60,576 nucleotides of DNA, from NCBI GenBank assembly GCA_021786105.1, contig JAJYNW010000016.1, positions 1 through 60,576 of the forward strand, written 5' to 3'. The position numbers and the translations under genes were made by a program. This DNA comes from a bacterium (GTDB taxonomy: Bacteria > Patescibacteriota > Microgenomatia > Daviesbacterales > UBA10151). The first letter of the stretch is position 1, and each line of letters begins with the position of its first letter. This document shows, in pieces, positions 20,111-36,035 of the stretch. The notes below the pieces were generated by a model. That model worked only from the letters and a program-made list of their open reading frames with translations, ran no database searches and had not been told where the DNA came from.

Positions 20111-20779
20111 TTGGCGATGGATATTTACTGGTATGGACAAGCATGTTTTAAAATAAAAGGTAAAACTGCTACTGTCGTGATAGATCCACACGATCCTCAA
20201 TTTACCGGTCTCAAACTTCCCAAAGAAAAAGAGTTACAAGCAGATGTGGCATTGGTGACACATGATCATCAGGATCATAATTTTATTTCAGCGGTTACTA
20301 TGCCGGATGGCAGTAAACCAATGGTTTTTGATAAACCCGGAGAATACGAAGTAGCGGGGGCGGTTATTACCGGTATACGTTCTTTCCATGATAATTCTGA
20401 AGGGTCCGAAAGAGGGCTAAATACTATTTTCCATTTATTTATGGATAATTTGGATATTGTGCATTTGGGGGATTTGGGGCAAGGCAAACTAACCGAGGAG
20501 CAAGTTGCCGAAATTGGCCCAACTGATATTTTGCTTATTCCGGTGGGGGGCACATACACCATAAACTCTGAAATAGCTTCAAATATTGTTTCCCAGTTGG
20601 AACCAAAAATTATTATCCCAATGCATTACAAAATAGAAGGATTAAAGTTTGAACTTGATAGTGTTGACGGGTTTTTGAAGGAAATGGGAGCAGAAGGAGC
20701 CATCCTGCAACCCAAGCTTTCGATAACCAAAGAAAAACTGCCCGAAGAGCCACAGGTGGTGGTGTTAAGTAAGAGCTAG
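20111..20779 (+). CDS. MBL-fold metallo-hydrolase
   Basis: WYGQACF, THDHQDHN, HLGDLG, IPMHY. Confidence 0.9.
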   Translation: MAMDIYWYGQACFKIKGKTATVVIDPHDPQFTGLKLPKEKELQADVALVTHDHQDHNFISAVTMPDGSKPMVFDKPGEYEVAGAVITGIRSFHDNSEGSERGLNTIFHLFMDNLDIVHLGDLGQGKLTEEQVAEIGPTDILLIPVGGTYTINSEIASNIVSQLEPKIIIPMHYKIEGLKFELDSVDGFLKEMGAEGAILQPKLSITKEKLPEEPQVVVLSKS

Positions 20780-20920
20780 CTCGTCGGTGCGCAAAAAACC
20801 GCTCGCGCGTCCAAGTCGCTCGCTTGGAGTTTGTTTCGCGCCGGGTGGTGACTGGATCAGGAATTCTGCGGTGCGCTCAACTGCACTGCATTTTTTGACT
20901 GCACTCGACTTCGCTGCTCT
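20772..20920. repeat. Structured dispersed element, copy 1 (candidate ncRNA or MITE)
   Basis: Blocks 50/55 and 27/28 identical to 35869-36012; ends are self-complementary. Confidence 0.85.
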
Positions 20921-20932
20921 TTTAATAAAGAT

Positions 20933-22291
20933 ATGTCTAATGCAGTTAAACTTCCTCCGCAAAATATAGATGCAGAGCAGTCCCTTTTGGGCTCTCTTTT
21001 AATTGATAAAGATGCGATTGTCCGGATTTCCGAAATTTTGCACCCCCAAAACTTTTACCGTACTGACCAGCATGGTCCTATTTATGAAGCGATTCAGGCC
21101 TTGTTTGAGAGGCGTGAACCGATAGATTTGGTAACTGTTACCGAAGAGCTGAAAAGAAAAAATGCTTATGATAGAGTTGGCGGGTCTGCATATTTGGCTT
21201 CCCTGATCAATATTGTTCCCACCTCAGCCCACATCGAACATTATGCCAAGATTATTAAGGATCATGCTATAAGGAGAAGCTTAATTGCCCAAGCTACCTT
21301 ACTTGTTCAGCATGCTTATGATGAAGGGGAGCCGGTAGAGGAGCTATTGGAAAAGGCGGAAGCGGCGATATTTTCTTTATCCCAGGATCATGTCAGCCGG
21401 GATTTCCGGCCGATCAAAGATGCCTTAACCGAGAGTTTTGATAGATTAGATGAACTGCAAAAATCTTCCGGAAAATTACGGGGGGTGCCTACCGGTTTTC
21501 GGGATTTGGATTCCAAGCTGGCCGGTATGCAGAATTCGAATTTGATCATTTTAGCCTCCCGGCCAGGCCAGGGTAAAACTTCCATGGCTTTAAATATTGC
21601 CCAATATGTGGCCGTTACTGCCGGACTGCCAGTAGGGATGTTTTCTTTGGAAATGAGCCAGGAAGAGTTAGTGGACAGGTTGTTGGTTGGTCAGGCGGAT
21701 ATTGAAGCCTGGAAGCTAAAAACCGGCAGATTGGATGAGAAAGATTTTGACAAGTTGTCTTTGGCTATGGGGGAGCTGGCCGAGGCGCCAATTTATATTG
21801 ATGATACTCCGGGTATTAATATTTCCGAGATGCGGACAAAAGCCAGGAGGTTGCAAATTGAGCATGGTTTGAAACTCCTGATTGTGGATTACTTGCAGCT
21901 TGTTCATGGCCGGAGTTTAGACAACAGGGTGCAGGAAGTTTCGGAAATTTCCCAAAGCTTGAAAAATATCGCCCGGGAGTTAAAGATTCCAGTGTTGGCA
22001 ATTTCCCAATTGTCCCGGGCAGTTGAACAGCGGGGAACCAGAAAGCCGCAGTTGGCAGATCTACGGGAATCAGGGGCGATTGAACAGGATGCGGATGTGG
22101 TGATGTTTATTTACCGGGAAGACCCGGAGCATATTGAGCAGGTGACTTTGGATATCCAAAAACACCGGAACGGTCCGGTGGGAGAAATACCGCTAATGTT
22201 TCGGGCTGACCGGACCAAGTTTTACGGCATGGAAAAAACCAGAGGCAGACCGGTGGAAAAAACTGGTAAAGAATCCGCCGCAGCTGCATGA
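20933..22291 (+). CDS. dnaB: Replicative DNA helicase
   Basis: PPQNIDAEQ, ASRPGQGKT, VDYLQL, LRESGAIEQDAD; no intein. Confidence 0.98.
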   Translation: MSNAVKLPPQNIDAEQSLLGSLLIDKDAIVRISEILHPQNFYRTDQHGPIYEAIQALFERREPIDLVTVTEELKRKNAYDRVGGSAYLASLINIVPTSAHIEHYAKIIKDHAIRRSLIAQATLLVQHAYDEGEPVEELLEKAEAAIFSLSQDHVSRDFRPIKDALTESFDRLDELQKSSGKLRGVPTGFRDLDSKLAGMQNSNLIILASRPGQGKTSMALNIAQYVAVTAGLPVGMFSLEMSQEELVDRLLVGQADIEAWKLKTGRLDEKDFDKLSLAMGELAEAPIYIDDTPGINISEMRTKARRLQIEHGLKLLIVDYLQLVHGRSLDNRVQEVSEISQSLKNIARELKIPVLAISQLSRAVEQRGTRKPQLADLRESGAIEQDADVVMFIYREDPEHIEQVTLDIQKHRNGPVGEIPLMFRADRTKFYGMEKTRGRPVEKTGKESAAAA

Positions 22292-22306
22292 TGTTTTGAT
22301 GCATCA

Positions 22307-22558
22307 TTAATTATAGATATTAGCTCGGTGGCCAGCGGCGAGAATATGTATTATTTTGTCTTCCTTGTTAACTTTGTAGATGATCCTATAAATTCCGATT
22401 CGATAAGAATATCTATTGGTTAATTCTCTGGATAAGGATTTTCCAACTAAGGGATTTTCCTTAATTTCTTCTAAAGCCAGTCCGATTGCTGATTGATGAA
22501 GCTTTTTAATTTTTCCGAGCTCTTTTTTGGCCTTAGCGGTTAATTTAATCTTATACAT
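22307..22558 (-). CDS. RelE/ParE family toxin
   Basis: 83 aa, YSYRIGIYRIIYKV; overlaps the antitoxin. Confidence 0.9.
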   Translation of the reverse strand: MYKIKLTAKAKKELGKIKKLHQSAIGLALEEIKENPLVGKSLSRELTNRYSYRIGIYRIIYKVNKEDKIIHILAAGHRANIYN

Positions 22559-22826
22559 TTATTCCGAGCTCTTTTTTAACCTCTTCCCAGTCATATACTT
22601 TACCTTCTTCAATATCTTTCTCTCCTTGTCTGATAGCTTTCATCAACTTCTCGTCAGCTAAGATCTCATTGGTTTCTTTCCATGACTCATATTCATCCAC
22701 AGACATCAAAACGGCGGCAGGCTTGCCGTTAACAGTAATAATATATTCATCCCAGATTTTATTGGCTTTATCAACTAGATTGGTTAATTTCTCTCTTGCT
22801 TCAGTAATAGGTAAAGTTTTAACCAT
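22551..22826 (-). CDS. Phd/YefM family antitoxin
   Basis: ITEAREKL, IITVNGKPAAVLMS. Confidence 0.92.
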   Translation of the reverse strand: MVKTLPITEAREKLTNLVDKANKIWDEYIITVNGKPAAVLMSVDEYESWKETNEILADEKLMKAIRQGEKDIEEGKVYDWEEVKKELGINV

Positions 22827-22835
22827 AATACGCTT

Positions 22836-22864
22836 ATCTTACAGAATTATGTACAGATTGTCAA
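22836..22864 (-). promoter_or_regulatory. TA operon promoter with TGTACA palindrome in the spacer
   Basis: TTGACA-N17-TAAGAT; tgtaca at 22850-22855. Confidence 0.7.
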
Positions 22865-23574
22865 TCCTGAATTAGTTTATACAATTTATCCCCAAGCTCA
22901 AAAAATTGTTCTGATCTTCTGTTTCTAGGTCTTTGTAAATTAACCTCCGTTACCTCTTTCAGGTTGCCATCTTTCATGATCCCAATTCTGTCTGCCAATA
23001 ATATGGCTTCTTCCAACAGGTGGGAAACCATGATGATAGTAATCTTGGTATCCTGCCAGATTTTCAAAAGGTCTTGGTGAAGCTCTTCAGTGGTTAGAGG
23101 ATCCAGGGCGGAGAAGGGTTCGTCAAGAAGTAGCACTTCCGGTTTGACAGCCAAAGCCCGGGCAATTCCCACCCGTTGTCTTTGCCCGCCGGATAACTGC
23201 CGGGGATATTTGTAATTAAAGCCAACTAGATTAACCATTCGTAAATATTCTGCAACTTGGCTTTCTATTAAATGTTTGGGGGTGTTGGCCATTTTCAAAC
23301 CAAAAGTTACATTTTCTTTTACAGTCAGCCAGGGCAGTAAGGCTCCAGATTGGAAAACCATGGAGATATTGCTGGGTTTGGTGATGTTGCCGGAGGTTGG
23401 TGTTTCGATACCGGCGATCATTTTTAGCAGAGTTGATTTGCCACAGCCCGAAGGACCAATCAGACAAAAAAATTCTCCCTGGCTAACTTTTAGGTTGACA
23501 TTTTGCACCACCCATTTGTCTGGAGTGCCGGGATATTTTTTACTGATATTGTCTAAAGTTACAACATGATTCAT
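22861..23574 (-). CDS. ABC transporter ATPase, nitrate/sulfonate (TauB/SsuB-like)
   Basis: GPSGCGKS, LSGGQ, LLLDEPF. Confidence 0.93.
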   Translation of the reverse strand: MNHVVTLDNISKKYPGTPDKWVVQNVNLKVSQGEFFCLIGPSGCGKSTLLKMIAGIETPTSGNITKPSNISMVFQSGALLPWLTVKENVTFGLKMANTPKHLIESQVAEYLRMVNLVGFNYKYPRQLSGGQRQRVGIARALAVKPEVLLLDEPFSALDPLTTEELHQDLLKIWQDTKITIIMVSHLLEEAILLADRIGIMKDGNLKEVTEVNLQRPRNRRSEQFFELGDKLYKLIQD

Positions 23575-23588
23575 TTTAGTATTTTTCC

Positions 23589-23702
23589 GTCATTCCTGCG
23601 AAAGCAGGAATCCAATTATCCGAACATAGTGAGGATAATAGTCCACGTCTATTAACCATTTAAGCTTGTGTTTAATTGGATCCCGACATTCGTCGGGATG
23701 AC
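23589..23702. repeat. GTCAT...ATGAC dimeric palindromic repeat, intergenic within the ABC operon
   Basis: gtcattcctgcgaaagcaggaatcca ... tggatcccgacattcgtcgggatgac. Confidence 0.88.
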
Positions 23703-23710
23703 ACTTTGTG

Positions 23711-24529
23711 TCAGTCAAATTTGTACCTTTCTACAAAATGCAACAGTTTTTGCCAGATGAAGAAATTTAATAGGGTAATTAAAATCACCATCACTAAAAT
23801 AGAAGCTAAAAAGATGGAATTTTTGCCTTGGTATGAAGCCTGGACCAACAAACTACCCAGACCAAATAAATCATAAAAGCTGGTGCCGCCGGGAATATAG
23901 TTATGCAGCACTTCTGCCACAATGATGACATTCCAGCCCTGGGCCCAGGCTAGCAGCGATCCGGTAATAATATAGGGAAAGATAGCCGGTAAAGTAATGT
24001 TAAAAAGCTTCTTCCATCCAGTGGCTTTAAAAACAAATGCTGCTGATTCAATATCCTGCGGAATAGTTTTCAGCCCGCCGATCATACTAAAAACTAAATT
24101 CCAAAGCATGGACAAAAAAATGATAAAAACAGCTGCCCCATCAAAGAAGTTAGCCTTGATAAAAACCAAGACAATGATAGGGAAGAAAGCCAAGGCCGGA
24201 ATGGACTGCAAAATATCAAAAAAAGGCAACAGGACTTTTTCCACTTTAGGCTTGCTGGTGATTAACAAGGCAAGGGGTATAGATGTTACTAATGCCAGGA
24301 TATACGCCCAAGTTAAGCGGTAAAAAGTGACAAAAGTTGCCTCCAGCAAATCCAGGGCTGAGATTTGGTCTAAATTGATTAAAGGTTTGGTGGGGGTAAT
24401 AAACCTAAAGGCAAAAAATAGCAGCAAAAACAATACAAACAGAACTACCAAAACAGATAGGAAATGTCTTTTTAAGGAGGTAGTGTAGGAAAAATGATAA
24501 TGGTGGTGATAATGCCGGACAGCCGCCAT
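23711..24529 (-). CDS. ABC transporter permease (TauC/SsuC-like)
   Basis: LQSIPALAFFP, TLPAIFPYIITG, multiple TMs. Confidence 0.9.
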   Translation of the reverse strand: MAAVRHYHHHYHFSYTTSLKRHFLSVLVVLFVLFLLLFFAFRFITPTKPLINLDQISALDLLEATFVTFYRLTWAYILALVTSIPLALLITSKPKVEKVLLPFFDILQSIPALAFFPIIVLVFIKANFFDGAAVFIIFLSMLWNLVFSMIGGLKTIPQDIESAAFVFKATGWKKLFNITLPAIFPYIITGSLLAWAQGWNVIIVAEVLHNYIPGGTSFYDLFGLGSLLVQASYQGKNSIFLASILVMVILITLLNFFIWQKLLHFVERYKFD

Positions 24530-24533
24530 GATC

Positions 24534-25115
24534 TTAGCTTATCATATTTAACTTTTGAATTTTGGCTTTAAATTCCTCCAAGGTGCCGTTGTTTTCGATC
24601 TTAATGTCGGCTTTTTTGGAAATTTGGGGAATGTCTTTTTCTGCTTTGGATTTTTCTTCTTTTAAAAATTGCTCAAAGGTCAGCCCAACTTCGCCGACTT
24701 TTTCACTTCTGGTCTTTAACCTTTGGTATCTTAATTTTTGGCCGGCGGTAATATAAATTAGAGTACTGTTTTTAAAGCTTCGAACTAATCTGGCTTCAGC
24801 TTCACGTCTGACTCCGTCAAAAATCACAATGTCAGCAGTATCGCCTTCAACGGAAAACTTGGCCGCTTTAGCCAAAGCTGTCTGGCCAAAAGTTTCACTC
24901 ATCATTAAGGCCAACTTTTGTAAATTGGCTCTGGTGATGGGAATATCCCACATAATTAAAGTTTCGGCCAAAATATCGGAAAACCTTACCTGCCTAATTT
25001 TTAATACCTCCCCTTTGTCATTGCGAGGACTGTAGGACGAAGCAATCTGTTTTATAAAATTGACAAAGGTTTGCTTGCCGGATCCTTTTTCGCCCACTAA
25101 ACCAAAAATTTGCAT
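24534..25115 (-). CDS. P-loop NMP kinase / dephospho-CoA kinase-like protein
   Basis: GLVGEKGSGK, FDGVRR, ADIKIENNGTLEEF; contains a repeat-derived insertion. Confidence 0.75.
   Translation of the reverse strand: MQIFGLVGEKGSGKQTFVNFIKQIASSYSPRNDKGEVLKIRQVRFSDILAETLIMWDIPITRANLQKLALMMSETFGQTALAKAAKFSVEGDTADIVIFDGVRREAEARLVRSFKNSTLIYITAGQKLRYQRLKTRSEKVGEVGLTFEQFLKEEKSKAEKDIPQISKKADIKIENNGTLEEFKAKIQKLNMIS
25017..25048. repeat. Half GTCAT-family repeat in frame in the kinase gene
   Basis: gtcattgcgaggactgtaggacgaagcaatct; its reverse complement is 31/32 identical to 34196-34227. Confidence 0.88.
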
Positions 25116-25352
25116 GCATTGTTTTTAACAGATTTTTGGCCGGGGAGTCAATCAGAAGATATTATGAAGAGTTTTTAACCTTTTGATAATGAACATGGCA
25201 ATAAACAAAGCCCAGACGGTAATGGAGTTAGACCGGATATAAGCCGGCAGCAAAAATATCCTTAATAAATAACGCATGAGAAGTAATTTTAAAAGTTACT
25301 TTTAAGAAGCAAGTTAATTTTTGGTAAGAAGTTGGGAAGCAAGAAACTCACT

Positions 25353-26618
25353 TCATTGCTCAGCTAAGGCCACTGTTGGTTGGAGGGATTCGGCATGCTT
25401 TTGCAGGCGGTATTTGTGCAAATAATAAGCTCCGATACCATAAAGGAAAATTAAAACGGTAAATACCCGGATAGCCATTTGCGGGCCAAAAACCGAGGAG
25501 ATCGAGCCAATTAGAATATTACCGATAGGTGATAGTCCAATAAACATTAAAGAGTAAATACTGGACACCCGGCCCCGGAAATCTTCATGGACCAGTTTTT
25601 GAATGGTGGTGTAAACAGATGAAAACTGGATAGTTAGCCCCAGTCCGGCAAAGAAAAGCAAGATGGATGCCAAATAAATGTTGGCGGCAAAAGAGAAGGC
25701 AAAGGTGGCCGCCATAAACAGGGCACTGCCGATCATAATAAATTTCTTGGCTTTGGCTTTTTTATACCGGGAGGAAATTATTAAAGAACCCACCAGTGCT
25801 CCCACTCCGGTAGAGGAAAGCAAAAATCCCAAAGTTTGAGCGTTGCCCGAGAAAACTTTGGCTACCAGAACCGGCATCATGGTGGCTTGGGAAAAACAAA
25901 GAATGGCCCCCATGCCGGCGGTCAAAAGCAATAAACTGATGGAAGGATGAGAGGAGGCATAAGCAATGCCTTCTTTTATGGCCTTGAGAGGTTTGTCCTT
26001 TTTGCGGTTGATTAAAGGATTGACTTCAATTAAACATAAGCTGATTAAAATAGCTAGGAAGCTTAAGGCGTTAATTAAAAAGATATTACCCATTCCCGCC
26101 AAGGCAATTAAAAATCCAGCTGCAGCCGGGCCGACCACCCGGCCGGTATTGAATATGGCTGAATTCAAGCCAATGGCTGAATGTAAATCGTCTTTCTGGA
26201 TAATATCTATCAAAAATGCCTGCGAAGCCGGGCCGTCCAAAGAATCGGTGATGCCGGAGAGTAAAGTAATCAACATTAATATAGGCAGAGTAATAGTGTG
26301 GGTGATGACTAATATGCCCAGGGTGGCGGCCAATATTAGGGAGCTGGTTTGGGTGCAAATTAAGATTTTCTTTCTGTTTAATTTGTCCACTAAGAATCCG
26401 CCAAAAAGGGAGAAAAACAAAACAGGTGAAGCTGACAGGGCAGAAATTGCCCCCAACCAAAAGGCAGAATGGGTCAGTTGATAGACCAGCCAGCCATAGG
26501 CTACCCCATGCAGCCAGGAACCGGTATAAGATATAAGTTGCCCCGTGAAATATAACCTGTAGTTTCTATATTTGAACGCGGGAAATGTTTTTTGTAATTT
26601 CTCGAGCAGTTTTAGCAT
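25353..26618 (-). CDS. MFS transporter (transmembrane secretion effector/H+ antiporter-like)
   Basis: About 12 TMs, YRNYRLYFTGQLIS, GFLVDKLNRKK; start could also be 26642. Confidence 0.9.
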   Translation of the reverse strand: MLKLLEKLQKTFPAFKYRNYRLYFTGQLISYTGSWLHGVAYGWLVYQLTHSAFWLGAISALSASPVLFFSLFGGFLVDKLNRKKILICTQTSSLILAATLGILVITHTITLPILMLITLLSGITDSLDGPASQAFLIDIIQKDDLHSAIGLNSAIFNTGRVVGPAAAGFLIALAGMGNIFLINALSFLAILISLCLIEVNPLINRKKDKPLKAIKEGIAYASSHPSISLLLLTAGMGAILCFSQATMMPVLVAKVFSGNAQTLGFLLSSTGVGALVGSLIISSRYKKAKAKKFIMIGSALFMAATFAFSFAANIYLASILLFFAGLGLTIQFSSVYTTIQKLVHEDFRGRVSSIYSLMFIGLSPIGNILIGSISSVFGPQMAIRVFTVLIFLYGIGAYYLHKYRLQKHAESLQPTVALAEQ

Positions 26619-26763
26619 CACTAAAGGGGCCGATGTTAGCACAATATGAAGTTGATGTAAAGGCTTTTCTTTCCTTCTTCTTACACTTTTCTAATATTCC
26701 TTTTATCCGGGGTGCCTATGATGGATTTAAGCGGTGGAATTTTGAAATTCCATCGTATTATTT

Positions 26764-27774
26764 ATGAAGATTGCAGTTTTTCGGGCACTGAAATTGGGAG
26801 ATTTACTATGTTGCGTTCCGGCTTTAAGGAGTTTGAGAAGGGCTTATCCTAAGGCGGAAATTACACTGATTGGTTTGCCATGGGCAAAAGATTTTGCCTT
26901 AAGGTTTAACCACTTGATTGATAAATTTGTGGAATTTCCAGGCTATCCGGGTTTGAGAGAAAGTGCCGGTAATTTACGGGGGATTGTAAAGTTTGTGACC
27001 CAAATGCAGGAAGAAAATTTCGATTTGGTGATACAAATGCACGGTAACGGGAAGGTGACTAATTCCTTAATCAGAAGTTTAAGACCGCAGTTAGAAGCCG
27101 GCTATTGGAAAGGAGAGGTCTGTCCGAATCCCCAAACTTTTATGCGGTATGTGGATAACCAGCATGAAATTAAAAGACACTTAATGCTGATGAAATTTTT
27201 GGGGATAGAGCCTCAGGGTGCTGATCTGGAATTTCCCATTAAACCTAGTGAAAAACGGCAGTTTCAGGAAAACATTGATCAATGGAAGCTGGAAACCGGA
27301 AATTTTGTAGTTATTCATTCCGGTGCTTATGCGAAGCGAAGACGATGGCCGGCCCAAAGGTTTGCCCAAGTGGCTGATTATTTAGCCGGCTTAGGCTACC
27401 AAATTGTTTTAACCGGAGTTGAAGAAGAAAAAGAGATTATTTCAGCGGTTTTGAAGGAGATGCTTCATCCGGCAGTTAACCTGGCGGGGAAGACTGATTT
27501 GGGGCAATTGGGAATGATTATTAAAAATGCCCGGGTTTTGGTTTCAAACGATACCGGTGTTTCTCACCTGGCCGCAGCTGTTAAAACCCCCAGCGTGATT
27601 ATTTCCTATTTAAAAAACCCTAACCTTTGGGCTCCGCTTAACCAGGATCTTCACAGAGTTCTGCAGGCTAAGGAAGCAGAAGATATAAGCCAGGTCTTTA
27701 TGGAGCTCGATTTGCTGCTCAATATCCACTGGAGAAGAGGAATAGCTGGTTTCCCAAGAATACTCAGTGTATGA
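26764..27774 (+). CDS. Glycosyltransferase family 9 (heptosyltransferase-like)
   Basis: KLGDLL, RRWPAQRFAQVA, VSNDTGVSHLAAA. Confidence 0.92.
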   Translation: MKIAVFRALKLGDLLCCVPALRSLRRAYPKAEITLIGLPWAKDFALRFNHLIDKFVEFPGYPGLRESAGNLRGIVKFVTQMQEENFDLVIQMHGNGKVTNSLIRSLRPQLEAGYWKGEVCPNPQTFMRYVDNQHEIKRHLMLMKFLGIEPQGADLEFPIKPSEKRQFQENIDQWKLETGNFVVIHSGAYAKRRRWPAQRFAQVADYLAGLGYQIVLTGVEEEKEIISAVLKEMLHPAVNLAGKTDLGQLGMIIKNARVLVSNDTGVSHLAAAVKTPSVIISYLKNPNLWAPLNQDLHRVLQAKEAEDISQVFMELDLLLNIHWRRGIAGFPRILSV

Positions 27775-28709
27775 GGAGAATATTAACCTGGCATGTCCAC
27801 GGGAATTATTTATATTATTTAACCCGAGTTAAATCCTGCGATTTTTATATCCCGTTTAAAAAAAGCGGTGGATTGGGGTATGAGGCTATCGGATCAGGAT
27901 TCCCTTGGGGAAAAAATGTTCACCAGGTGCCGGCAGAAGAGATTAAGAGGCTTGGGCTGGATTTAATCCTTTTCCAGTCCAGCTATCCGGAGAATAAAAT
28001 TTACTTACAGGATCAGTTTGAGATTTTATCAAAGGATCAATTAACTCTGCCAAAAGTTTATCTGGAACATGAGCCTCCCAGGGATTTGCCAACTGATACC
28101 AAACATATAACTGCCAGCTCAGATACCTTCTTGGTGCATGTGACTCATTTTAATAATTTGATGTGGGATAGCGGACAAACCGCTACCAGGGTGATTGAGC
28201 ATGGTGTGGTGGCGCCTGAAATACCTTACATTGGCGACCTGCCAAAAGGGGCGGTGGTAATTAATAATTTGGACAAAAGAGGTAGAAGATTGGGCCGGGA
28301 TGTTTTTGAAAGGGTGAAGAAGGAAGTGCCTTTGGATTTAATCGGCATTGATTCGGAAAACTTAGGCGGTTTAGGCGAAATACCGCATCAAGAATTACTT
28401 AAAGCTTTATCTCGTTACCGGTTTTTGTTTAATCCGGCTCGCTATACCTCGCTGGGGTTGGCAATTTGTGAGGCAATGATGATTGGTCTGCCGGTGGTTG
28501 GTTTGGCTACGACGGAAATGGTTACCGTAGTTCAAAGTGGAATCTCAGGCTTTTTGGATACGAATATCGAGGCTTTAATTCCCCAGATGAAACTATTGAT
28601 TAATGATCAAAATTTGGCCCGGCAAATGGGAAAAGAAAGCCGGCAAATTGCCCAGAAAAGATTCGACATTCAGAGGTTTGTCAAAGACTGGGAGGAGGTA
28701 CTGGGATGA
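27771..28709 (+). CDS. GT-B glycosyltransferase (GT4-like)
   Basis: LGLAICEAMMIGLPVV, SGISGF. Confidence 0.85.
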   Translation: MRRILTWHVHGNYLYYLTRVKSCDFYIPFKKSGGLGYEAIGSGFPWGKNVHQVPAEEIKRLGLDLILFQSSYPENKIYLQDQFEILSKDQLTLPKVYLEHEPPRDLPTDTKHITASSDTFLVHVTHFNNLMWDSGQTATRVIEHGVVAPEIPYIGDLPKGAVVINNLDKRGRRLGRDVFERVKKEVPLDLIGIDSENLGGLGEIPHQELLKALSRYRFLFNPARYTSLGLAICEAMMIGLPVVGLATTEMVTVVQSGISGFLDTNIEALIPQMKLLINDQNLARQMGKESRQIAQKRFDIQRFVKDWEEVLG

Positions 28710-30619
28710 AGCGCAAAATTGCTTTTATCAGTCATGAATCGCCGCTTGCCACTTTGGGCGGGGTGGATGCCGGCGGCCAGGTGATTTATATCGGCCAGAT
28801 TGCCAAGAAGTTGAGCCGGTTGGGTTATGAGGTAGATATTTTCACCCGCTGGGATGATGCCAGGCTGCCGCAAGTGGTGGAATGGGATAACGGCGTCAGG
28901 GTGATTCAAGTCAAGGCCGGGCCGATTACCTTTATAAATAAGGAAAAATTGTTTCCCCACATGAAAGAGTTTACTGATAACATGATTGATTTTATGAAAA
29001 CGGAAAAAGATCCTTACCGGCTGATCCATGCTAATTTTTGGCTGGCGGTAATCCCGGCCATGGAAATTAAACAAAGATTTAATATTCCATTTGTGGTGAC
29101 TTTCCATGCTTTGGGTAAAATCCGACGGATCTTTCAGGGGAAAGATGATAAATTCCCGGATAACCGTTTTGGAATTGAAGAGAAAGCTATGAGAGAGGCA
29201 GCCGCCATTATTGCCGAATGTCCCCAAGATCGGGAAGATATGATTAATTACTATAATGCTAACCCGGACAAAATTACTATCATCCCGGCTGGTTTTGACC
29301 CCAATGAATTTTATCCGATTGATAAACTGTTGTGCCGGATGGTTTTAGATTTAAACCCCAAAGAGCCAATCATCCTACAGCTAGGTAGGGTTATCAAAAG
29401 AAAGGGGATTGATAATGTGATTGCTGTCCTGCCAATTTTGCGGAGAAAGTTTAGAGTTAAAGCCAAGTTGCTGATTGTAGGGGGTGACAGTGATGTGCCT
29501 AACGCCAGACTTACTCCGGAAATCAGAAGATTGAGGCGAATTGCCAGACAGGAAAAGGTAGAAGATTGTGTTCGATTTGTTGGCCGGAGAGGCAGAGAAA
29601 CGCTGAAATATTTTTATAATGCCGCTGATGTGTTTACTACCACTCCCTGGTATGAACCCTTTGGCATTACGCCTTTGGAAGCGATGGCTTGTGGTACGCC
29701 GGTAGTGGGGTCAAATGTGGGCGGTATCAAATATACGGTTTTAGACGGAAAAACCGGTTATTTAGTTCCTCCAAATGACGCGGAAAGCTTGGCGCAAAAG
29801 TTGGCCGATATATTCAAAAACCGCAAAATTGCCAACTTTTTTAAAGAAAACGGCCTGAAAAGAGTCAATAATGCCTTTACCTGGGAAAAAATTGCCAGCT
29901 CTATTTCTCAAGTTTACGAAAAAGTGCTTTTTGGTGACATTCAAATCCCGGAAAAGGAAAAACAGCTTCATATTATTGAAAGCGGTTTTAGGGCTTTATC
30001 CCAAACTGTGGAACAATCGCAGTTTGCCTTGCGTATTCCGATGCTGGACGCTGCCCAAGCCATTGCCCGCAGTTTCCAGGAGGGTGGTAAAGTTTTGGTC
30101 TGCGGTAACGGCGGATCAGCGGCTGATTCTCAGCATCTGGCAGCGGAGCTAGTCGGCCGCTTCCAAATTTCCTTAAGGCAGGGACTGCCGGTGATTTCCC
30201 TGACTAGTGATACTTCGTTTTTGACTGCCTGGGGGAACGACTTTTCCTTTGATGAGATATTCTCAAGACAAGTGAATGCTTTGGGGCAGGCAAATGATAT
30301 TTTAATCGGCATCTCAACTAGCGGAAATTCCGAAAACGTTAACCTGGCTTTCATTGAAGCTCATAAGAAGGGAATGGTTTGTATAGGGTTGTTAGGGAAA
30401 AAGGGAGGCGAAGCAGCTGAGTTGTGTGATGTGGCCTTAATAGTTCCTTCTGATGATACCCAAAGAATTCAGGAAATCCATACTAATGTGATCCACACGA
30501 TTTGCGAGTTAATAGAAAAACAGTTATTTACCTCAGAAGACCGGCCGGAAACTGTTTTGCCAAAATCTCTGCCGGTTAAACCGAAATTACCTTACGTGTT
30601 GAAGGAGCAAATGAAATGA
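28706..30619 (+). CDS. GT4 (MshA-like) glycosyltransferase fused to GmhA-type SIS phosphoheptose isomerase
   Basis: DAGGQ, YEPFGITPLEAMACG; C-terminal CGNGGSAADSQH, ISTSGNS, QRIQEIH. Confidence 0.9.
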   Translation: MKRKIAFISHESPLATLGGVDAGGQVIYIGQIAKKLSRLGYEVDIFTRWDDARLPQVVEWDNGVRVIQVKAGPITFINKEKLFPHMKEFTDNMIDFMKTEKDPYRLIHANFWLAVIPAMEIKQRFNIPFVVTFHALGKIRRIFQGKDDKFPDNRFGIEEKAMREAAAIIAECPQDREDMINYYNANPDKITIIPAGFDPNEFYPIDKLLCRMVLDLNPKEPIILQLGRVIKRKGIDNVIAVLPILRRKFRVKAKLLIVGGDSDVPNARLTPEIRRLRRIARQEKVEDCVRFVGRRGRETLKYFYNAADVFTTTPWYEPFGITPLEAMACGTPVVGSNVGGIKYTVLDGKTGYLVPPNDAESLAQKLADIFKNRKIANFFKENGLKRVNNAFTWEKIASSISQVYEKVLFGDIQIPEKEKQLHIIESGFRALSQTVEQSQFALRIPMLDAAQAIARSFQEGGKVLVCGNGGSAADSQHLAAELVGRFQISLRQGLPVISLTSDTSFLTAWGNDFSFDEIFSRQVNALGQANDILIGISTSGNSENVNLAFIEAHKKGMVCIGLLGKKGGEAAELCDVALIVPSDDTQRIQEIHTNVIHTICELIEKQLFTSEDRPETVLPKSLPVKPKLPYVLKEQMK

Positions 30620-31338
30620 ATGCTTTCAAAGGCAAAATTGCTTTAGTAACCGGTGGGGGTCAAGGTTTAGGTCAAGAAATTTGCCGAAGTTTGGCTAAGG
30701 AGGGGGCTTTAGTGATTGTGGCTGATGTTAATAAACAGAAAGCGGAAAAAGCTGCCAAATGGATAAAATACCAAAGGGGAAAGGCTCAGGCGATAGAATT
30801 GGATGTAAGCGATGAGCTTTCTGTAAAAAAAGTTTTTGATGAGTTGGATAAACAGTTTGGGGTTTTAGATATTTTAATTAATAATGCCGGGATAGATTTT
30901 ACTAAATCTTTGGACGAAATTTTGACCGATGAGTGGCAGAAGGTGCTAAAAGTTAATCTGATTGGGGCGTTTTTAATGACTAAACATGCCTTCTCCGTTA
31001 TGGGTAAAAAAGAGCCTGGGCAAGTGATTAATATCTGTTCTACAGCTTCCAAAAGAGCCTGGGCTAATGCTTCAGCTTACCATGCTAGCAAATGGGGTTT
31101 GTTGGGTTTTTCCCACGCCGCACATGTAGAAGGCCGGGAGAAAAATATCAAAGTTACAGCTTTGGTTTCCGGCGGGATGAAAACACCCTTTATTTTAGAA
31201 AGATTTCCGGAGGCAGAGCCTAATTTGCAGGATCCAAAAAATGTGGCAGAGGTAATTAAGTTTGTTTTATCTTTACCTAAAGAAACAGCTATTCCTGAGG
31301 TGATGGTGATTCCAATGAGGGAAACAAGCTGGCCTTAA
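30616..31338 (+). CDS. Short-chain dehydrogenase/reductase
   Basis: TGGGQGLG, NNAG, YHASK. Confidence 0.93.
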   Translation: MNAFKGKIALVTGGGQGLGQEICRSLAKEGALVIVADVNKQKAEKAAKWIKYQRGKAQAIELDVSDELSVKKVFDELDKQFGVLDILINNAGIDFTKSLDEILTDEWQKVLKVNLIGAFLMTKHAFSVMGKKEPGQVINICSTASKRAWANASAYHASKWGLLGFSHAAHVEGREKNIKVTALVSGGMKTPFILERFPEAEPNLQDPKNVAEVIKFVLSLPKETAIPEVMVIPMRETSWP

Positions 31339-31349
31339 ATACTTACTTG

Positions 31350-31432
31350 TGCCGAGGGAGGGAGTCGAACCCTCATGATCTTGCGATCAATAGATTTTGA
31401 GTCTATCGTGTCTACCATTCCACCACCTCGGC
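31350..31432 (-). tRNA. tRNA-Leu(CAA)
   Basis: Acceptor stem GCCGAGG/CCTCGGC, anticodon arm ATAGA-CTCAAAA-TCTAT, long variable arm, GGTTCGACT; CCA not encoded. Confidence 0.96.
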
Positions 31433-31509
31433 AATTTAACTACTTGAGGCATTATACCAATTTTAGCTTTACGAAGAAAGAATAAAGAGATGCTTTATTT
31501 TATGTCTGT

Positions 31510-31534
31510 ACAAATGTCCTCCGGCCGTGGTACA
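31510..31534. repeat. 25-bp direct repeat, left copy (inverted arms acaaatgt/acatttgt span 31510-31539)
   Basis: acaaatgtcctccggccgtggtaca, identical to 32041-32065. Confidence 0.93.
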
Positions 31535-31544
31535 TTTGTGATAA

Positions 31545-32039
31545 ATGACTAGGTTTCCTAGCAAGCGAAAGGCTTTAACTGATTTAGTTTTACTCGCTTT
31601 GGAGAAATCAGTTGATGGTTATGTGAGTTTTGAAGATTTTATCTATAATCCTTTGCTGGAAAGACCGGTTAAGAAACCAGCTCTTTCCCAAGTAATTAAA
31701 CGATTAAGAGAAAAAGGTTTTATTGAATTTGTAAAGGATGAAGAATTGATTTTACGATTAACAGATTCCGGTAAAGATAGAGCATTGTGGGCAAAAATGA
31801 GAAGTGGAGATGAGAAATGGGATGGTAAATGGAGGTTGGTGGTTTGGGATATTCCAGAGAAAAGAAGACAGGCTCGCGATTTGTTAAGGTTTAAATTGAA
31901 ACAGCTAGGATTTAAACAATGGCAGCAAAGTATTTGGGCTTCAAAGATAAACTGCACAAAGCTATTAAGAGATTTTATTAAGCAAGTCGGGATAGAGGAT
32001 TGGGTGATGGTAATTGAATCTGATAATATTGGGAATTGA
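31545..32039 (+). CDS. wHTH plus Cas2-like (PaaX central domain) protein
   Basis: ALSQVIKRLREKGFI...LRLTDSGK then WDGKWRLVVWDIPEKRR...LKQLGF...QQSIW. Confidence 0.88.
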   Translation: MTRFPSKRKALTDLVLLALEKSVDGYVSFEDFIYNPLLERPVKKPALSQVIKRLREKGFIEFVKDEELILRLTDSGKDRALWAKMRSGDEKWDGKWRLVVWDIPEKRRQARDLLRFKLKQLGFKQWQQSIWASKINCTKLLRDFIKQVGIEDWVMVIESDNIGN

Positions 32040-32040
32040 G

Positions 32041-32065
32041 ACAAATGTCCTCCGGCCGTGGTACA
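32041..32065. repeat. 25-bp direct repeat, right copy
   Basis: Separated from the stop codon by 1 nt; identical to 31510-31534. Confidence 0.93.
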
Positions 32066-32157
32066 AATGAAATATAAAGGATTTAGATCGGGTAAGACTG
32101 GACAAGAGATTGTGATTTAGGTAAAGTACCAAACAGAATTAAGGAAAGGGGTAAACT

Positions 32158-34746
32158 ATGAAAAACAAAGTTAGATTACCGGTACATGTTAAACCCCAGC
32201 GCTACAAAATTATGCTCCGGCCGGACCTTGAGCAGTTTACCTTTTACGGCGAAGAAACAATCGAATTGTTGCTGGATAAACCCGCTAAGCAAATCACTCT
32301 CCACTCAGCTGAGCTGGAAATAGATTCAGCAGAATTCATCCATCAAGATAAACAGGTCTGGGCAGGTAGGATCTCCTATGATGTTAAAGCTGAAACCGCC
32401 ACCTTTACTTTTCCCAAAACTCTTCTCAAAGGCAGAGGGCAGCTAAAACTAATGTTTAGGGGAATTTTAAATGATAAAATGCGGGGTTTTTACCGTTCAC
32501 GCTATGAAGTGGGCGGAGTTTCAAAACATATCGCGACCACCCAATTTGAATCGACTGATGCCAGGCGGGCTTTTCCTTCTTTTGATGAGCCTTCACAAAA
32601 AGCTATTTTTGATGTGACTTTAATGGTGCCGGCTAATTTAACCGCTATTTCAAACACTATGGAATCTAATGTGTTGGAGCATGAAAGCGGTTACAAAACT
32701 GTTGAATTTGCCCCTACCCCAAAAATGTCTACCTATTTGCTGGCCTTTATTGTGGGAGATTTTGAATATATTGAAAAAGAGACTGAAGATAAAGTCAGGG
32801 TCAGAGTTTTTACCACTCCTGGTAAAAAAGCCCAAGCCAAGTTTGCGTTAGATGTGGCAGCCAAATGCTTGGAATTTTACAATGATTATTTTGGAATTAA
32901 ATACCCGCTGCCCGTACTTGACATGATTGCTATCCCGGATTTTGCAGCCGGAGCCATGGAGAATTGGGGAGCGGTAACTTACCGGGAATCCACTTTGTTG
33001 ATTGACGAAGCCAGTTCCTCTTCAGCCAATAAACAATGGGTGGCCATGGTGATTGCCCACGAACTGGCCCACCAGTGGTTTGGTGATTTGGTTACTATGG
33101 AGTGGTGGACTCATTTGTGGTTAAACGAAGGCTTTGCTTCGTTCATTGAATATTTAGCTGTAGATCATATCTTTCCGGAGTGGGATATCTGGACTCAATT
33201 TGTAGCTACCGAGTTGTCTGATGCTTTTGAGCTGGATTCGTTAAAAAATACGCACCCGATTGAGGTGGAAGTAAAAAATCCGGCTGAAATTTCCGAGATT
33301 TTTGACCGGGTGTCATATTCCAAGGGAGCTTCGGTTTTAAGAATGTTGTGGAAGTATTTAGGGGAGAAGGATTTCCAAAAAGGTTTGCAGTATTATTTGA
33401 AAAAACATGCCTACGGTAATGCCCAAACTGAAGATTTATGGCAAGATTTGGAAGAAAAATCCGGTAAACCCGTCAAAAAGGTAATGAAAAACTGGACCTT
33501 GCGGGCGGGACACCCGGCGGTAAGGGTACAGGTAACAGGCAACAGGCTACTGTTAAAACAGAGTAGATTCTTTTCTAGTCCAATCTCTAAGAATCAAACT
33601 AAGGATAATACAATTTGGAATATTCCGGTGAGAATAGGAAAGGAGCAGTTTTTGCTGGATAAAAAATCTATGTCCATTCCCAACCAGGGAGAAAAGTTAA
33701 ATAGCGGGGAAGTATCTTTGGTCCGGGTGGATTACCCCCGAGATTATTTGTATGGATTGGAAGATTCAATAAAAAGCGGTAAATTATCTGCTCCGGACAG
33801 GTTGGGACTAATTAGGGATAGCTTTGATTTGGCTCAATCAGGTAATTCCCCGACCACTTTAGCTTTGGAGCTGGCTTTAAATTATATAAACGAGGAAGAC
33901 TACACAGTTTGGTCAACACTCACCGGGCACCTTAGTCAGTTGGACAGCTTATTGGCGTATGAGGATTTCTACGAAGATTTTAGAAGCTTTGGCAGAAAAA
34001 TTTACAGCGGAATTGCCGAAAAATTAGGTTGGGAAAAGAAAAAAGGGGAAAAGCACACCGACGGATTGCTTCGGGGCATAGTGTTATATAAATTAGGCTC
34101 TTTTGGAGAGTTGGAAACAATCAAAAAAGCCCAGGAATTATTTTCCTCCTCCCGTCATTCTGAGCGATTAGCGAAGAATCTTCCACGATCGGAGAAGATT
34201 GCTTCGTCCTACAGTCCTCGCAACGACAAGGGTATTGATCCGGATCTTCGCAGCCTGGTTTATAACCTGGTGGCTCAAAATGGCAGCACCAAAGAATTTA
34301 ATACTTTAGTTAAGATGTACAAAGAGGCAGATAACCAGCAGGAAAAAGACCGGATTGGCCGCAGTTTAGGTTTATTCCCGTCTAAAACTATTTTGCAAAA
34401 GGCTTTGGATTTTGCCATTTCCAAACATGTCAGATACCAAAATAGTTTGCAGATAATTGCTTCGGTCTGGAGTAATCCTCAGGGGCGGTATTTGGCCTGG
34501 GAATTCGCTAAAAAGAACTGGAAACTACTCAAAGAAAGGTATGCCGGCGGACATTATTTTACCCGGGTTTTCGCCCCGGCAGGCGAGTTTACCAAAAAAG
34601 AAGATGCCAAAGATATTGAAAGGTTTGTGAAGATTAACCCGGTGCCTGAGGCCAAAAGAACCATTGCTCAAGCCTTGGAGCAAATTTATTCCAATGCGGA
34701 GTGGTTAAAAAGGGATAAGGATAAGATTAAAAATTTTTTAGGGTAA
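32158..34746 (+). CDS. pepN: M1 family aminopeptidase with ERAP1-like C-terminal domain
   Basis: GAMENWG, HELAHQW...E (HEXXH-18-E), YSKG. Confidence 0.96.
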   Translation: MKNKVRLPVHVKPQRYKIMLRPDLEQFTFYGEETIELLLDKPAKQITLHSAELEIDSAEFIHQDKQVWAGRISYDVKAETATFTFPKTLLKGRGQLKLMFRGILNDKMRGFYRSRYEVGGVSKHIATTQFESTDARRAFPSFDEPSQKAIFDVTLMVPANLTAISNTMESNVLEHESGYKTVEFAPTPKMSTYLLAFIVGDFEYIEKETEDKVRVRVFTTPGKKAQAKFALDVAAKCLEFYNDYFGIKYPLPVLDMIAIPDFAAGAMENWGAVTYRESTLLIDEASSSSANKQWVAMVIAHELAHQWFGDLVTMEWWTHLWLNEGFASFIEYLAVDHIFPEWDIWTQFVATELSDAFELDSLKNTHPIEVEVKNPAEISEIFDRVSYSKGASVLRMLWKYLGEKDFQKGLQYYLKKHAYGNAQTEDLWQDLEEKSGKPVKKVMKNWTLRAGHPAVRVQVTGNRLLLKQSRFFSSPISKNQTKDNTIWNIPVRIGKEQFLLDKKSMSIPNQGEKLNSGEVSLVRVDYPRDYLYGLEDSIKSGKLSAPDRLGLIRDSFDLAQSGNSPTTLALELALNYINEEDYTVWSTLTGHLSQLDSLLAYEDFYEDFRSFGRKIYSGIAEKLGWEKKKGEKHTDGLLRGIVLYKLGSFGELETIKKAQELFSSSRHSERLAKNLPRSEKIASSYSPRNDKGIDPDLRSLVYNLVAQNGSTKEFNTLVKMYKEADNQQEKDRIGRSLGLFPSKTILQKALDFAISKHVRYQNSLQIIASVWSNPQGRYLAWEFAKKNWKLLKERYAGGHYFTRVFAPAGEFTKKEDAKDIERFVKINPVPEAKRTIAQALEQIYSNAEWLKRDKDKIKNFLG
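34154..34227. repeat. Full GTCAT-family dimeric repeat in frame in pepN
   Basis: gtcattctgagcgattagcgaagaatct...agattgcttcgtcctacagtcctcgcaacgac; encodes RHSERLAKNLPRSEKIASSYSPRND. Confidence 0.9.
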
Positions 34747-34749
34747 AAA

Positions 34750-35211
34750 TTAGCTTTGGGGCTTGTTTTCGTCCTGGTTTTCAATAGGCTCCTGGAATTC
34801 AACGGAGGAGATTTGAATCTTGCGCAACGCGGCCCCCATGGTTTGAAGCCTTCTTCTATCCCTAAAGGTATCCTTACCCAGATAATAAGTTCCGATGGCA
34901 GCTAAAATTCCCACCCCCAATTGTGTTTCTGAATATAGGCTAAGTTGAGCTAAGATTGGATAATTGTTTAAAGGAATTAAATCAGCAGAGATTAAAGGAA
35001 AAATTGATTTGGAAAGCTCGGTTGCGGCATCTGCGGCAAGAATTAAAGAAATGCCTATTTTAAACCTATTCTTCCACTTAGCCCAGTCCACCATAGCACC
35101 TAAATCTCCCGTATGTAAAAAACGCTCCTTTGTTTCTTCTGTAGTAGTAACATCGATTGCTCCGGCAAAGTTTGGTACGGGGCCGATGCGAACCTCTAAA
35201 GTTTTCCGCAT
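34750..35211 (-). CDS. Hypothetical two-TM protein
   Basis: 153-aa ORF with two hydrophobic segments. Confidence 0.55.
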   Translation of the reverse strand: MRKTLEVRIGPVPNFAGAIDVTTTEETKERFLHTGDLGAMVDWAKWKNRFKIGISLILAADAATELSKSIFPLISADLIPLNNYPILAQLSLYSETQLGVGILAAIGTYYLGKDTFRDRRRLQTMGAALRKIQISSVEFQEPIENQDENKPQS

Positions 35212-35305
35212 TCCAACTAAGATATTAGAAGAGATATATAATAAATCTTTAACAAATAAGTAAATATTTGGAAATAATTTCCTGTTTTATGGTAAAATCC
35301 CCTAC

Positions 35306-35869
35306 ATGGCTTTAAATGTTACAGATTTAAGAAACGGTACTTTTTATAAAGAGGGGAAGGATATTTTTCTTGTTTTAACTTATGAGCACGTTAAGACGGG
35401 TAGAGGTTCCGGCAATATCAAAGTTAAAGTCCGCAACATCAGGACTGGTTCGGTGGTGGAAAAATCCTTTATTACCGGGGCTCGGGTGGATGAGGCTGAT
35501 GTGGAGAAGAAAAAAGCCCAATTTCTTTATAAAGACGGGGAAACTTTTAATTTCATGGATCCGGCTTCCTTTGAGCAATTTTCCTTGTCGGCCCCAGTTT
35601 TAGGGGATCAAGCTAAGTATCTAAAAGATGGCCTGGAAGTGATCCTGATTGTGGGGGAAGGTGAGGCTTTAGGATTGGAATTACCCATGAGCTTGGTGTA
35701 TGAAATTACCGAAACCGGTCCGGAAGAAAAAGGTAATACGGTTTCCAATGTTTTTAAAGAAGCAGTTTTAGATAATGGTTTAGTGGTCAGGGTGCCGATG
35801 TTTATGAAAGTAGGAGAAAAAGTGAAAGTTGATACTCGTTCTGGAGAATACATTGAGAGAGTGAAATGA
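35306..35869 (+). CDS. efp: Elongation factor P
   Basis: HVKTGRGSG, AQFLYKD, VPMFMKVGEKVKVDTRSGEY. Confidence 0.97.
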   Translation: MALNVTDLRNGTFYKEGKDIFLVLTYEHVKTGRGSGNIKVKVRNIRTGSVVEKSFITGARVDEADVEKKKAQFLYKDGETFNFMDPASFEQFSLSAPVLGDQAKYLKDGLEVILIVGEGEALGLELPMSLVYEITETGPEEKGNTVSNVFKEAVLDNGLVVRVPMFMKVGEKVKVDTRSGEYIERVK

Positions 35870-36012
35870 GCGGCTTGTCACAGTACAAAAAACCGCTCGC
35901 GCGACCAGGTCGCTCGCTTGAAGTTCGTTTCGCGCCGAGTAAAAGGTGGATCATGGATAAAGTGGTGCGCTCAACTGCACTACATTTTTTGGTTACTTGT
36001 GACTACGCCGCT
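35869..36012. repeat. Structured dispersed element, copy 2 (candidate ncRNA or MITE)
   Basis: See 20772-20920; ends agcggc..gtcaca pair with tgtgac..gccgct. Confidence 0.85.
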
Positions 36013-36035
36013 TTTTAGTGGTATATTTTACTAAT

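Follow-up and report, generated by a model that had tools for sequence, protein, structure and literature searches.

Probable foldback interspersed repeats of about 140 nt in Candidatus Daviesbacteria, located between genes and in frame within coding sequences

Introduction

Rickettsia palindromic elements (RPE-1 and its relatives; Ogata et al. 2000) are repeats of 100-150 bp that are found between genes as well as in frame within housekeeping proteins (PMC10969869, PMC3733652, PMC1779305), and RPE-7 in pheT is an old insertion common to the orthologues across species (PMC1779305). Here we analyse a structured repeat with two copies, A and B, in a 60,576-nt stretch of contig JAJYNW010000016.1 (GCA_021786105.1; Daviesbacterales), which is referred to as the window throughout. 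Together with further copies from other genomes and metagenomes, these two probably represent a new family of interspersed repeats, each a foldback (palindrome) of ~140 nt. The family would be a non-autonomous mobile element comparable to RPE and ERIC, and all copies known to date come from Candidatus Daviesbacteria (Microgenomates), a lineage of the Candidate Phyla Radiation (CPR). CPR bacteria have tiny, ~95% coding genomes, and are thought to be poor in mobile DNA.

Several other small repeats are relevant for comparison. ERIC hairpin RNAs affect mRNA fate via RNase E and Correia elements via RNase III, and SPRITEs are small interspersed terminator-like repeats downstream of genes (PMC10969869). 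CGTC-tagged REPs consist of an unpaired CGTC head, an 8-9-bp stem, a 4-5-nt loop and a CCA-like tail (PMC3733652), and NTS/SRM hairpins are substrates of Ssn GIY-YIG single-stranded DNA (ssDNA) nucleases (PMC11893778).

Judged by behaviour, RPEs are the closest known elements, followed by ERIC. As in RPEs, the foldback elements are palindromic repeats of ~100-150 bp in a compact genome, lie in frame in intact housekeeping proteins, have no known transposase and include insertions shared by orthologues. They differ from RPEs, with which they were compared by description, in belonging to another phylum (CPR versus Alphaproteobacteria), in being far rarer (~5 copies per genome), and in that the in-gene copies of Daviesbacteria outconserve the silent sites of their host and keep their pairing by compensatory change. 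RPEs were reportedly described by Amiri et al. in 2002 as deteriorating after insertion. With ERIC and Correia, the foldback elements share the form of imperfect palindromes (~127-155 bp in ERIC and Correia), the location in transcribed intergenic regions in both orientations, and occasional intragenic copies; ERIC copies are said to evolve slowly, a statement attributed to Wilson and Sharp in 2006. Terminal inverted repeats are conserved in ERIC and Correia, the latter with TA duplications as well, whereas the foldback family has variable termini, a conserved core and no duplication. SPRITEs are resembled in the terminator-like features, namely hairpin 2 followed by T6 and the whole stem followed by a T-rich right flank, but the foldback copies form a three-way junction rather than a simple hairpin and occur also inside the gatA/gatB operon and in coding sequences, where termination would be harmful. 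The likeness to CGTC-tagged REPs and NTS/SRM hairpins comprises a CGTC/HGTC at the start of the paired region, intragenic copies and true NTS-like hairpins in the same genome; those elements are ~30-nt hairpins, whereas the foldback element is a ~140-nt composite that the SRM pattern does not match. The foldback family is distinctive in that it is rare, combines a conserved core with covarying arms in one composite fold, and is strongly conserved once inserted.

Results

Copies and family size

Copies A and B share two blocks, block 1 (20790-20844 versus 35884-35938; 50/55 identical) and block 2 (20868-20895 versus 35962-35989; 27/28 identical), which are separated in both copies by a spacer of 23 nt that includes TGGATCA. 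The outer ends are unlike in sequence between the two copies, yet self-complementary inside each. The original prediction had been made on these observations, which were reproduced on recomputation; the two copies are real, but the length of ~145 nt assigned to them was corrected to 140 nt each on the basis of the conserved termini. Each core word of 17-18 nt had two occurrences in the 60.6-kb window, where shuffled sequence would give 0.01-0.13, and both copies folded better on the + strand than their own shuffled sequences (z = -3.7 and -2.7).

The copies located amounted to 13 distinct ones of 119-143 nt, spread over 8 loci from several genomes and metagenomes of Candidatus Daviesbacteria. 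A single covariance model, built from eight copies and scored on all 13, yielded 65-161 bits (155.6 bits for copy A, match 20773-20922; 160.9 bits for copy B, match 35867-36016), with E-values of 1e-16 to 1e-43 for the eleven non-window copies; over the 180 kb examined it returned the 13 copies and otherwise one weak neighbour in L084. With the 17-mer of hairpin 2, 70 loci were retrieved from genome contigs, of which 3 were true copies from two other Candidatus Daviesbacteria genomes and 67 were chance matches, and a degenerate block 1 pattern gave 8 loci in metagenomes, 4 of them by chance, with a gain of two new copies. A peptide-profile search led to the sixth locus (L090), and the TsaD host protein as query to five orthologous in-gene copies. 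When the contigs of the source metagenome were compared with both window copies at 80% identity, ~3 more diverged copies were found at the same depth as the window genome, and the copy number is therefore about 5 per genome. The rarity of the element was also apparent at the protein level: a search with only the insert in phosphoglycerate kinase (PGK) returned the query alone (1 protein), a forward-frame peptide profile found 2 small open reading frames (ORFs) only, an exhaustive search of 1.84 billion proteins with a reverse-frame profile yielded 2, and a handful of matches were present in 5.8 billion protein clusters.

Comparison with known families was negative. Rfam 15 gave no match to copy A or B, even at E ≤ 10, and the single match at gathering score across the whole window was a tRNA; membership in a described Rfam family, one of the outcomes against which the original prediction had been set, was thus not found at any threshold. 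The same holds for REP families of the SRM (Ssn/REP) type, as the published pattern HGTCWYN(0-2)YYVSBRHN(0-5)WNVSBRGN(0-2)RNCYNB matched none of the copies and nothing in the window or the eight scanned loci. Distant blastn searches of plasmid and phage collections with the element revealed no similarity, a 17-mer scan of IMG/VR gave 6 chance matches, none of which was extended by BLAST, and the literature searched contained no account of such elements in CPR/Patescibacteria.

Several specific candidates were rejected. CGTC-tagged REPs have only the CGTC tetranucleotide in common with the element and are quite different in stem, loop and size. Judged on anatomy, with no dedicated run, an integron attC site was rejected for the lack of R'/R'' (GTTRRRY/RYYYAAC) and the location of copies inside genes, a retron msr-msd for the lack of a reverse transcriptase nearby, and a hammerhead or twister ribozyme for the absence of the core motifs and of an Rfam match.

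Fold and covariation

In the RNAalifold consensus, the element has a long, bulged outer stem and, enclosed by it, a junction with two inner hairpins and a variable spacer. The outer stem of ~20 bp is formed by the ends, with the consensus CAGCTCGTC-N7-A6 ... T6-N9-GACTTCGCTG; a gapless inverted-repeat finder overlooks these bulged arms. In the 13-copy alignment, 91.8% of the cells were in a standard pair, compared to 85.6 ± 0.7% in shuffled alignments and 35-49% with slid partners, and 14 of 39 pairs had changed on both sides, compared to 5.8 ± 1.5 in shuffled alignments (0/500 reaching 14) and 2-3 with slid partners; these counts are to be read with the caveat that the alignment was fitted to the model and that the copies are related to each other. 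Most of the covariation lay in the long outer stem (11/19 pairs), and the terminal pairing proposed from the two window copies was upheld by the eleven further ones. The A6/T6 helix covaries, with U:A in L084, G:C in L078 and CAAAGT/ACTTTG in a further copy of the source genome, and the GTC/GAC helix, invariant in the first eight copies, is replaced by GCC/GGC in L091 and by ATC/GAT in L093-L095. The inner hairpins are mainly conserved in sequence and vary by one-sided G:U/A:U changes: block 1 with inner hairpin 1 (helix 4 of the pair-count model) is invariant among the first eight aligned copies, and hairpin 2 differs between copies A and B by one compensatory pair, C:G to U:A.

Insertion sites

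At 4 of the 6 intergenic loci, a terminus of the element lies 0-1 nt from the preceding stop codon or overlaps it, and at 5/6 the element runs in the same direction as the gene after whose stop codon it lies. Relative to the host genes, both orientations occur, the antisense copies being L058 and those in tsaD. For the window, a start at the upstream stop codon had been claimed for both copies. This is correct for copy A, where the upstream MBL-fold ORF (20111-20779) terminates at the TAG (20777-20779) with which the element begins, a TAA at 20770 being out of frame, and in part for copy B, in which the efp stop codon TGA (35867-35869) ends 1 nt before the terminus. The downstream neighbours dnaB and galU were likewise recovered by Pfam (DnaB and a GalU-like NTP-transferase, next to EF-P), but the tie to downstream genes that the shared orientation just ahead of dnaB and galU had implied is not general across the other loci.

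Inside TsaD, the element forms a clean insert of 48 aa between residues 227 and 232 of the solved Thermotoga homologue, and the Pfam profile is covered to its end. Other TsaD orthologues have no insert at this loop, or unrelated ones; unrelated lineage-specific inserts (e.g. PVILSAAKNL...RDPSLIVQ) were observed in P0008, P0009, P0016, P0017, P0020, P0040 and others. With several unrelated inserts, this surface loop is a place where different repeat families have repeatedly landed or been tolerated. The PGK with the element also covers its full Pfam span, but 47 element codons are opposite ~55 canonical residues of the C-terminal domain, and so are more than a plain addition to them; because of this, the gene may be damaged, as a still-open pseudogene or through an insertion plus a deletion.

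The in-gene copies in tsaD are 144, 141 and 123 nt long, and the length of each coding copy is divisible by 3. The copies are therefore translated rather than removed by splicing, and on this ground an intervening sequence that is spliced was rejected. Six-frame translation of the first seven copies showed an open frame, KKPLARPxRSLEVCFAP, in all of them. A protein-coding mini-gene was nevertheless rejected, as the relative frame of blocks 1 and 2 differs among copies because of indels in the spacer, and conservation has no codon periodicity.

Two further observations concern neighbouring genes. At the gatCAB locus, some metagenome assemblies have two ORFs in place of an intact gatA (L088:967-2426) or gatB (L086:3414-3969) beside the element copy; these splits are frameshifts or assembly errors. 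In a tsaD-carrying relative, a gene for a four-helix-bundle protein (PF05635, 23S_rRNA_IVP; L094:12700-13242, - strand) adjoins a class-I aminoacyl-tRNA synthetase gene (PF00133, tRNA-synt_1).

Sequence conservation and divergence

A codon alignment of tsaD from six genomes showed higher conservation for the element than for the host gene in 15/15 pairs (0.68-0.96 versus 0.63-0.75). Identity at third codon positions was 0.73 in the element, against a mean of 0.44 (standard deviation 0.036, maximum 0.51) in 269 host windows of equal size, none of which (0/269) reached the value of the element, placing it ~8 standard deviations above the rest of the gene. Within the element there was no codon periodicity, with 0.77 at positions 1+2 and 0.73 at position 3. 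The simplest reading of these data is that nucleotides and pairing are under purifying selection, acting on single-stranded base pairing (RNA or ssDNA), because the stem changes by compensation and the core is conserved even at silent positions of tsaD, an essential gene. Template-switch correction of quasi-palindromes would explain the paired changes, but not the slow overall rate.

The divergence of element and host was correlated (Mantel r = 0.83, exact P = 0.015; without L095, r = 0.76, P = 0.075), and the genes neighbouring tsaD are syntenic in the carriers. From this correlation and synteny, vertical co-divergence of element and tsaD is the favoured interpretation. Copies in the same genome (0.74 for L030 versus L058, 0.73 for copies A versus B) have not been homogenised, which argues against gene conversion. 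The TsaD tree is star-like, with carriers in four places and one pair in a supported clade together with non-carriers, so that one gain followed by losses is inseparable from repeated site-specific gains.

Termini, flanks and mobility

The elements end in the conserved termini CAGC...GCTG, as part of inverted repeats with the skeleton CAGCTYGTC / GACTWCGCTG, of which the adjoining 7-9 nt differ between subtypes and covary. The three bases outside the termini are unlike between loci and complementary within a locus, in 15/24 cells against 9.4 for re-paired flanks (P = 0.006), and the right flank is usually T-rich (CTTTT). Either the pairing reaches into fast-evolving terminal bases, or insertion favours small palindromic A/T-rich targets.

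A relative of the element was observed at L084:700-826 (+), 5 nt from a canonical copy. It is a foldback of 127 nt (fold z = -3.6) with the arms GTCACTCGTCACAGTAT...GATACTTTGTGACTCGTTCC, which are close to those of L058 and window copy B (a 12-nt exact left-arm match, and ~15/17 positions identical by eye), around an 80-nt interior unrelated to the canonical core. From its sequence it looks like a second element type on the same arms; with the same arms around an unrelated interior, the arms would therefore act as a module able to carry different cores. An arm BLAST over the DNA examined found no additional arm-sharing elements, and within the 180 kb there was no parent insertion sequence or transposase with the same ends.

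Occupancy also differs at an orthologous site. In a relative from the same source sample, ~83% identical in efp and galU, the efp-galU interval holds 84 unlike bases, compared to 167 in the window. The differing loci, both orientations, three host proteins, the second core and the efp-galU difference demonstrate movement over evolutionary time, not current activity. The original prediction had offered two possibilities for a conserved structure of RNA or ssDNA, namely a novel non-coding RNA or cis-element on the one hand and a non-autonomous mobile element on the other. It is supported in this form, with the mobile branch favoured because of the two orientations, the three coding sequences and the differing occupancy at the orthologous site; the constraint at the nucleotide level leaves room for a role as cis-element or RNA.

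A number of points weigh against a mobile foldback family. Copy number and distribution are based on pattern scans that need exact matches of 17-23 nt. No target-site duplication of >2 nt was found at the 8 independent loci, where the longest direct repeat across the junctions was 0-2 nt, and no transposase or other candidate enzyme could be linked to the copies. The conservation is opposite to that of a classical miniature inverted-repeat transposable element, in that the core is invariant and the termini are variable. No near-identical copies were seen, and identity across loci is 0.62-0.84, so that only past movement is supported. The empty-site evidence is a length difference only. Finally, the resolution of the TsaD tree is too poor for a single ancestral insertion to be established, and repeated site-specific insertion could mimic conservation.

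Alternative readings

The first alternative, which we consider unlikely, is a duplicated functional structured RNA (a small RNA or cis-acting module), in which the three-way-junction fold is selected, hairpin 2 and U6 form its own terminator, and the closing stem protects the ends. Invariant inner loops and hairpins with covarying closing helices are indeed an RNA-like pattern of conservation, the constraint on nucleotides exceeds that on silent sites of the host gene, and most intergenic copies (5/6) are sense to the preceding gene. Hairpin 2 and T6 were flagged as an intrinsic terminator on the + strand of both window copies, a prediction by consensus match only. On the opposite strand the hairpin and T-run are weaker, and the whole foldback followed by its T-rich flank is also terminator-like. 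The copies within gatA/gatB and tsaD argue against efficient termination. Among the modelled + strand pairs, G:U outnumbers A:C by 53 to 13, but the G:U cells are mostly at invariant positions and so are not independent observations, and the folding energies of the whole strands have no consistent polarity (mean of + minus - strand, +1.0 kcal/mol); therefore, no functional strand is claimed. A structured RNA is further disfavoured by two tsaD orthologues, which have lost hairpin 2 while retaining the outer stem, by the antisense copies in tsaD and between the HMG-CoA genes, which would need an independent antisense transcript, and by the failure to match an Rfam family. No promoter-like site was found in or upstream of copy A, and copy B has a single weak one at chance level (1 found, 1.2 expected). 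This match (35999-36027, + strand) consists of GTGACT, 17 nt and TATATT, with a TG, its -35 element lying in the right arm of copy B and its -10 element in the flank. The metatranscriptomes of the source study contained nothing from this organism over 18 kb and are uninformative either way on RNA.

Less likely still is a site acting at the DNA level, an ssDNA hairpin or cruciform kept because some protein, of the host or selfish, binds or cuts it as a substrate; candidates for this protein include Ssn-type GIY-YIG ssDNA nucleases, Y1 (RAYT/IS200-like) transposases and factors of replication or segregation. The independence of gene orientation and the tolerance in coding DNA would fit such a role, and ~5 copies per genome suit a specific site better than a proliferating parasite. 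Both arms begin with HGTCAC, which reads CGTCAC in the left arm and AGTCAC in the right arm when reverse-complemented, recalling the CGTC tag of REPs and RPE-4/6 (PMC3733652), but this likeness extends over 4-6 nt only, and CGTC is replaced by CGCC in L091 and by CATC in L093, L094 and L095. A genuine NTS-like hairpin, CGTCATTCCTGCGAAAGCAGGAATCC, is present in the window at 23588-23615 (consensus in PMC11893778), but the SRM pattern matches neither a copy of the element nor anything else in the window or the eight scanned loci, and the 8-9-bp stems and 4-5-nt loops of CGTC-tagged REPs (PMC3733652) are unlike the 140-nt three-way fold. At gatA/gatB, the copy is preceded at a distance of 1.4 kb by a gene for a GIY-YIG protein of 99 aa with this single domain, an association seen at 1/8 loci.

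That the likeness is due to chance or to a local segmental duplication, and that no family exists, might have been suspected from just two copies visible in the window, but can be dismissed, given eleven more copies with unrelated flanks at unrelated loci in other genomes, at the E-values stated above.

Two features named in this section were observed in their own right. The GIY-YIG gene is located between gatC and gatA (L004:5330-5629, + strand; also in L085-L089), and its size and architecture are like those of Ssn-type ssDNA nucleases. The hairpin CGTCATTCCTGCGAAAGCAGGAATCC on the + strand of the window fits the Neisseria NTS/dRS3 consensus CGTCATTCCCGCGMAVGCGGGAATCYRG (PMC11893778) save for one compensated stem pair and the last base, and has an inverted, TGTC-tagged partner, GTCATCCCGACGAATGTCGGGATCC, at a distance of ~55 nt (23676-23702, - strand). 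From their sequences, the two hairpins would constitute a separate CGTC/TGTC-tagged REP family in this CPR genome, of which the strict SRM pattern misses CGTCATTCCTGCGAAAGCAGGAATCC.

Feature coordinates

Table 1. Copies of the foldback element, their parts in the window, and their hosts. Positions are those of the window unless a contig is named; gene names outside the window are by Pfam where indicated; MFE, minimum free energy.
Feature	Position	Strand or orientation	Location	Remarks
Copy A, element TAGC...GCTG, 140 nt	20777..20916	+	Intergenic, between MBL-fold gene and dnaB	Window copy A
Copy A, left arm including A6 (20793-20798)	20777..20798	+		Pairs with 20891-20916 in MFE and consensus folds
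Copy A, block 1 / inner hairpin 1 (TCGCGCG..TCGCTC.CTTG..GTT.GTTTCG)	20799..20844	+		Most sequence-conserved part
Copy A, central spacer	20845..20866	+		Variable in sequence and length between copies (alignments)
Copy A, inner hairpin 2 and T6	20867..20896	+		Intrinsic-terminator score: 9 pairs, loop 6, TTTTTT
Copy A, right arm	20897..20916	+		Folds, consensus, pair counts
Copy B, element CGGC...GCCG, 140 nt	35871..36010	+	Intergenic, between efp and GalU-like NTP-transferase gene	Window copy B
Copy B, left arm including A6 (35887-35892)	35871..35892	+		Consensus terminal A:U pair changed to G:C
Copy B, inner hairpin 2 and T6	35962..35990	+		Terminator-like (terminator scan)
Copy B, right arm	35991..36010	+		GTGACT here and TATATT in flank give promoter-like match ahead of GalU-like gene
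Copy at gatA/gatB			Intergenic, inside operon	Gene names by Pfam
Copy L058		antisense	HMG-CoA reductase / thiolase-fold HMG-CoA-synthase-like gene	Pfam
Copy at cupin gene			Intergenic, cupin gene 3' end, between convergent genes	Pfam
Copy at purP-like genes			Intergenic, between two purP-like genes	Pfam
Copy L078	Residues ~208-255 of PGK	sense, in frame	Inside PGK gene, L078:1962-3071 (-)	
Copies L030 and five orthologues		antisense, in frame	Inside TsaD	
Diverged peptide copy in P0124		reverse frame	Methyltransferase with Trm112 zinc ribbon, between its two domains	Ninth host

Discussion

If the foldback family is mobile, as we think rather likely, the element would have landed over time at many unrelated sites, in the short gap that separates a stop codon from the following gene and in either orientation, as well as in surface loops of proteins, where it would be translated in frame. 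After fixation it would persist undecayed, the outer stem through compensatory changes and the core through sequence conservation. The fold could be the recognition target of a hairpin-specific DNA enzyme; alternatively, it might have been co-opted as an orientation-tolerant RNA hairpin that serves as terminator, RNase target or stabiliser, by analogy to ERIC, Correia and SPRITE.

A more far-reaching interpretation, which we regard as doubtful, is that the element is not passive selfish DNA but a host-retained, structure-dependent nucleic-acid module that works inside coding sequence in either orientation. Selection would then be stronger than on the silent sites of the host gene, while TsaD itself diverged to ~66-77% identity, and the module might serve as substrate or handle of a hairpin-specific DNA or RNA transaction system in CPR.

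In practical terms, gene callers annotate copies of the element as small hypothetical proteins (P0002, P0003) and as lineage-specific protein insertions. The insert in tsaD bears a clean signature, open to testing, of selection for a nucleic-acid fold within a gene that encodes a protein, and the element offers a tangible substrate with which the enzyme or process reading such hairpins could be sought in uncultured lineages. For the CPR, a probable mobile family of this kind means that a structured repeat survives in their genomes by using the last intergenic bases and the surface loops of essential enzymes.

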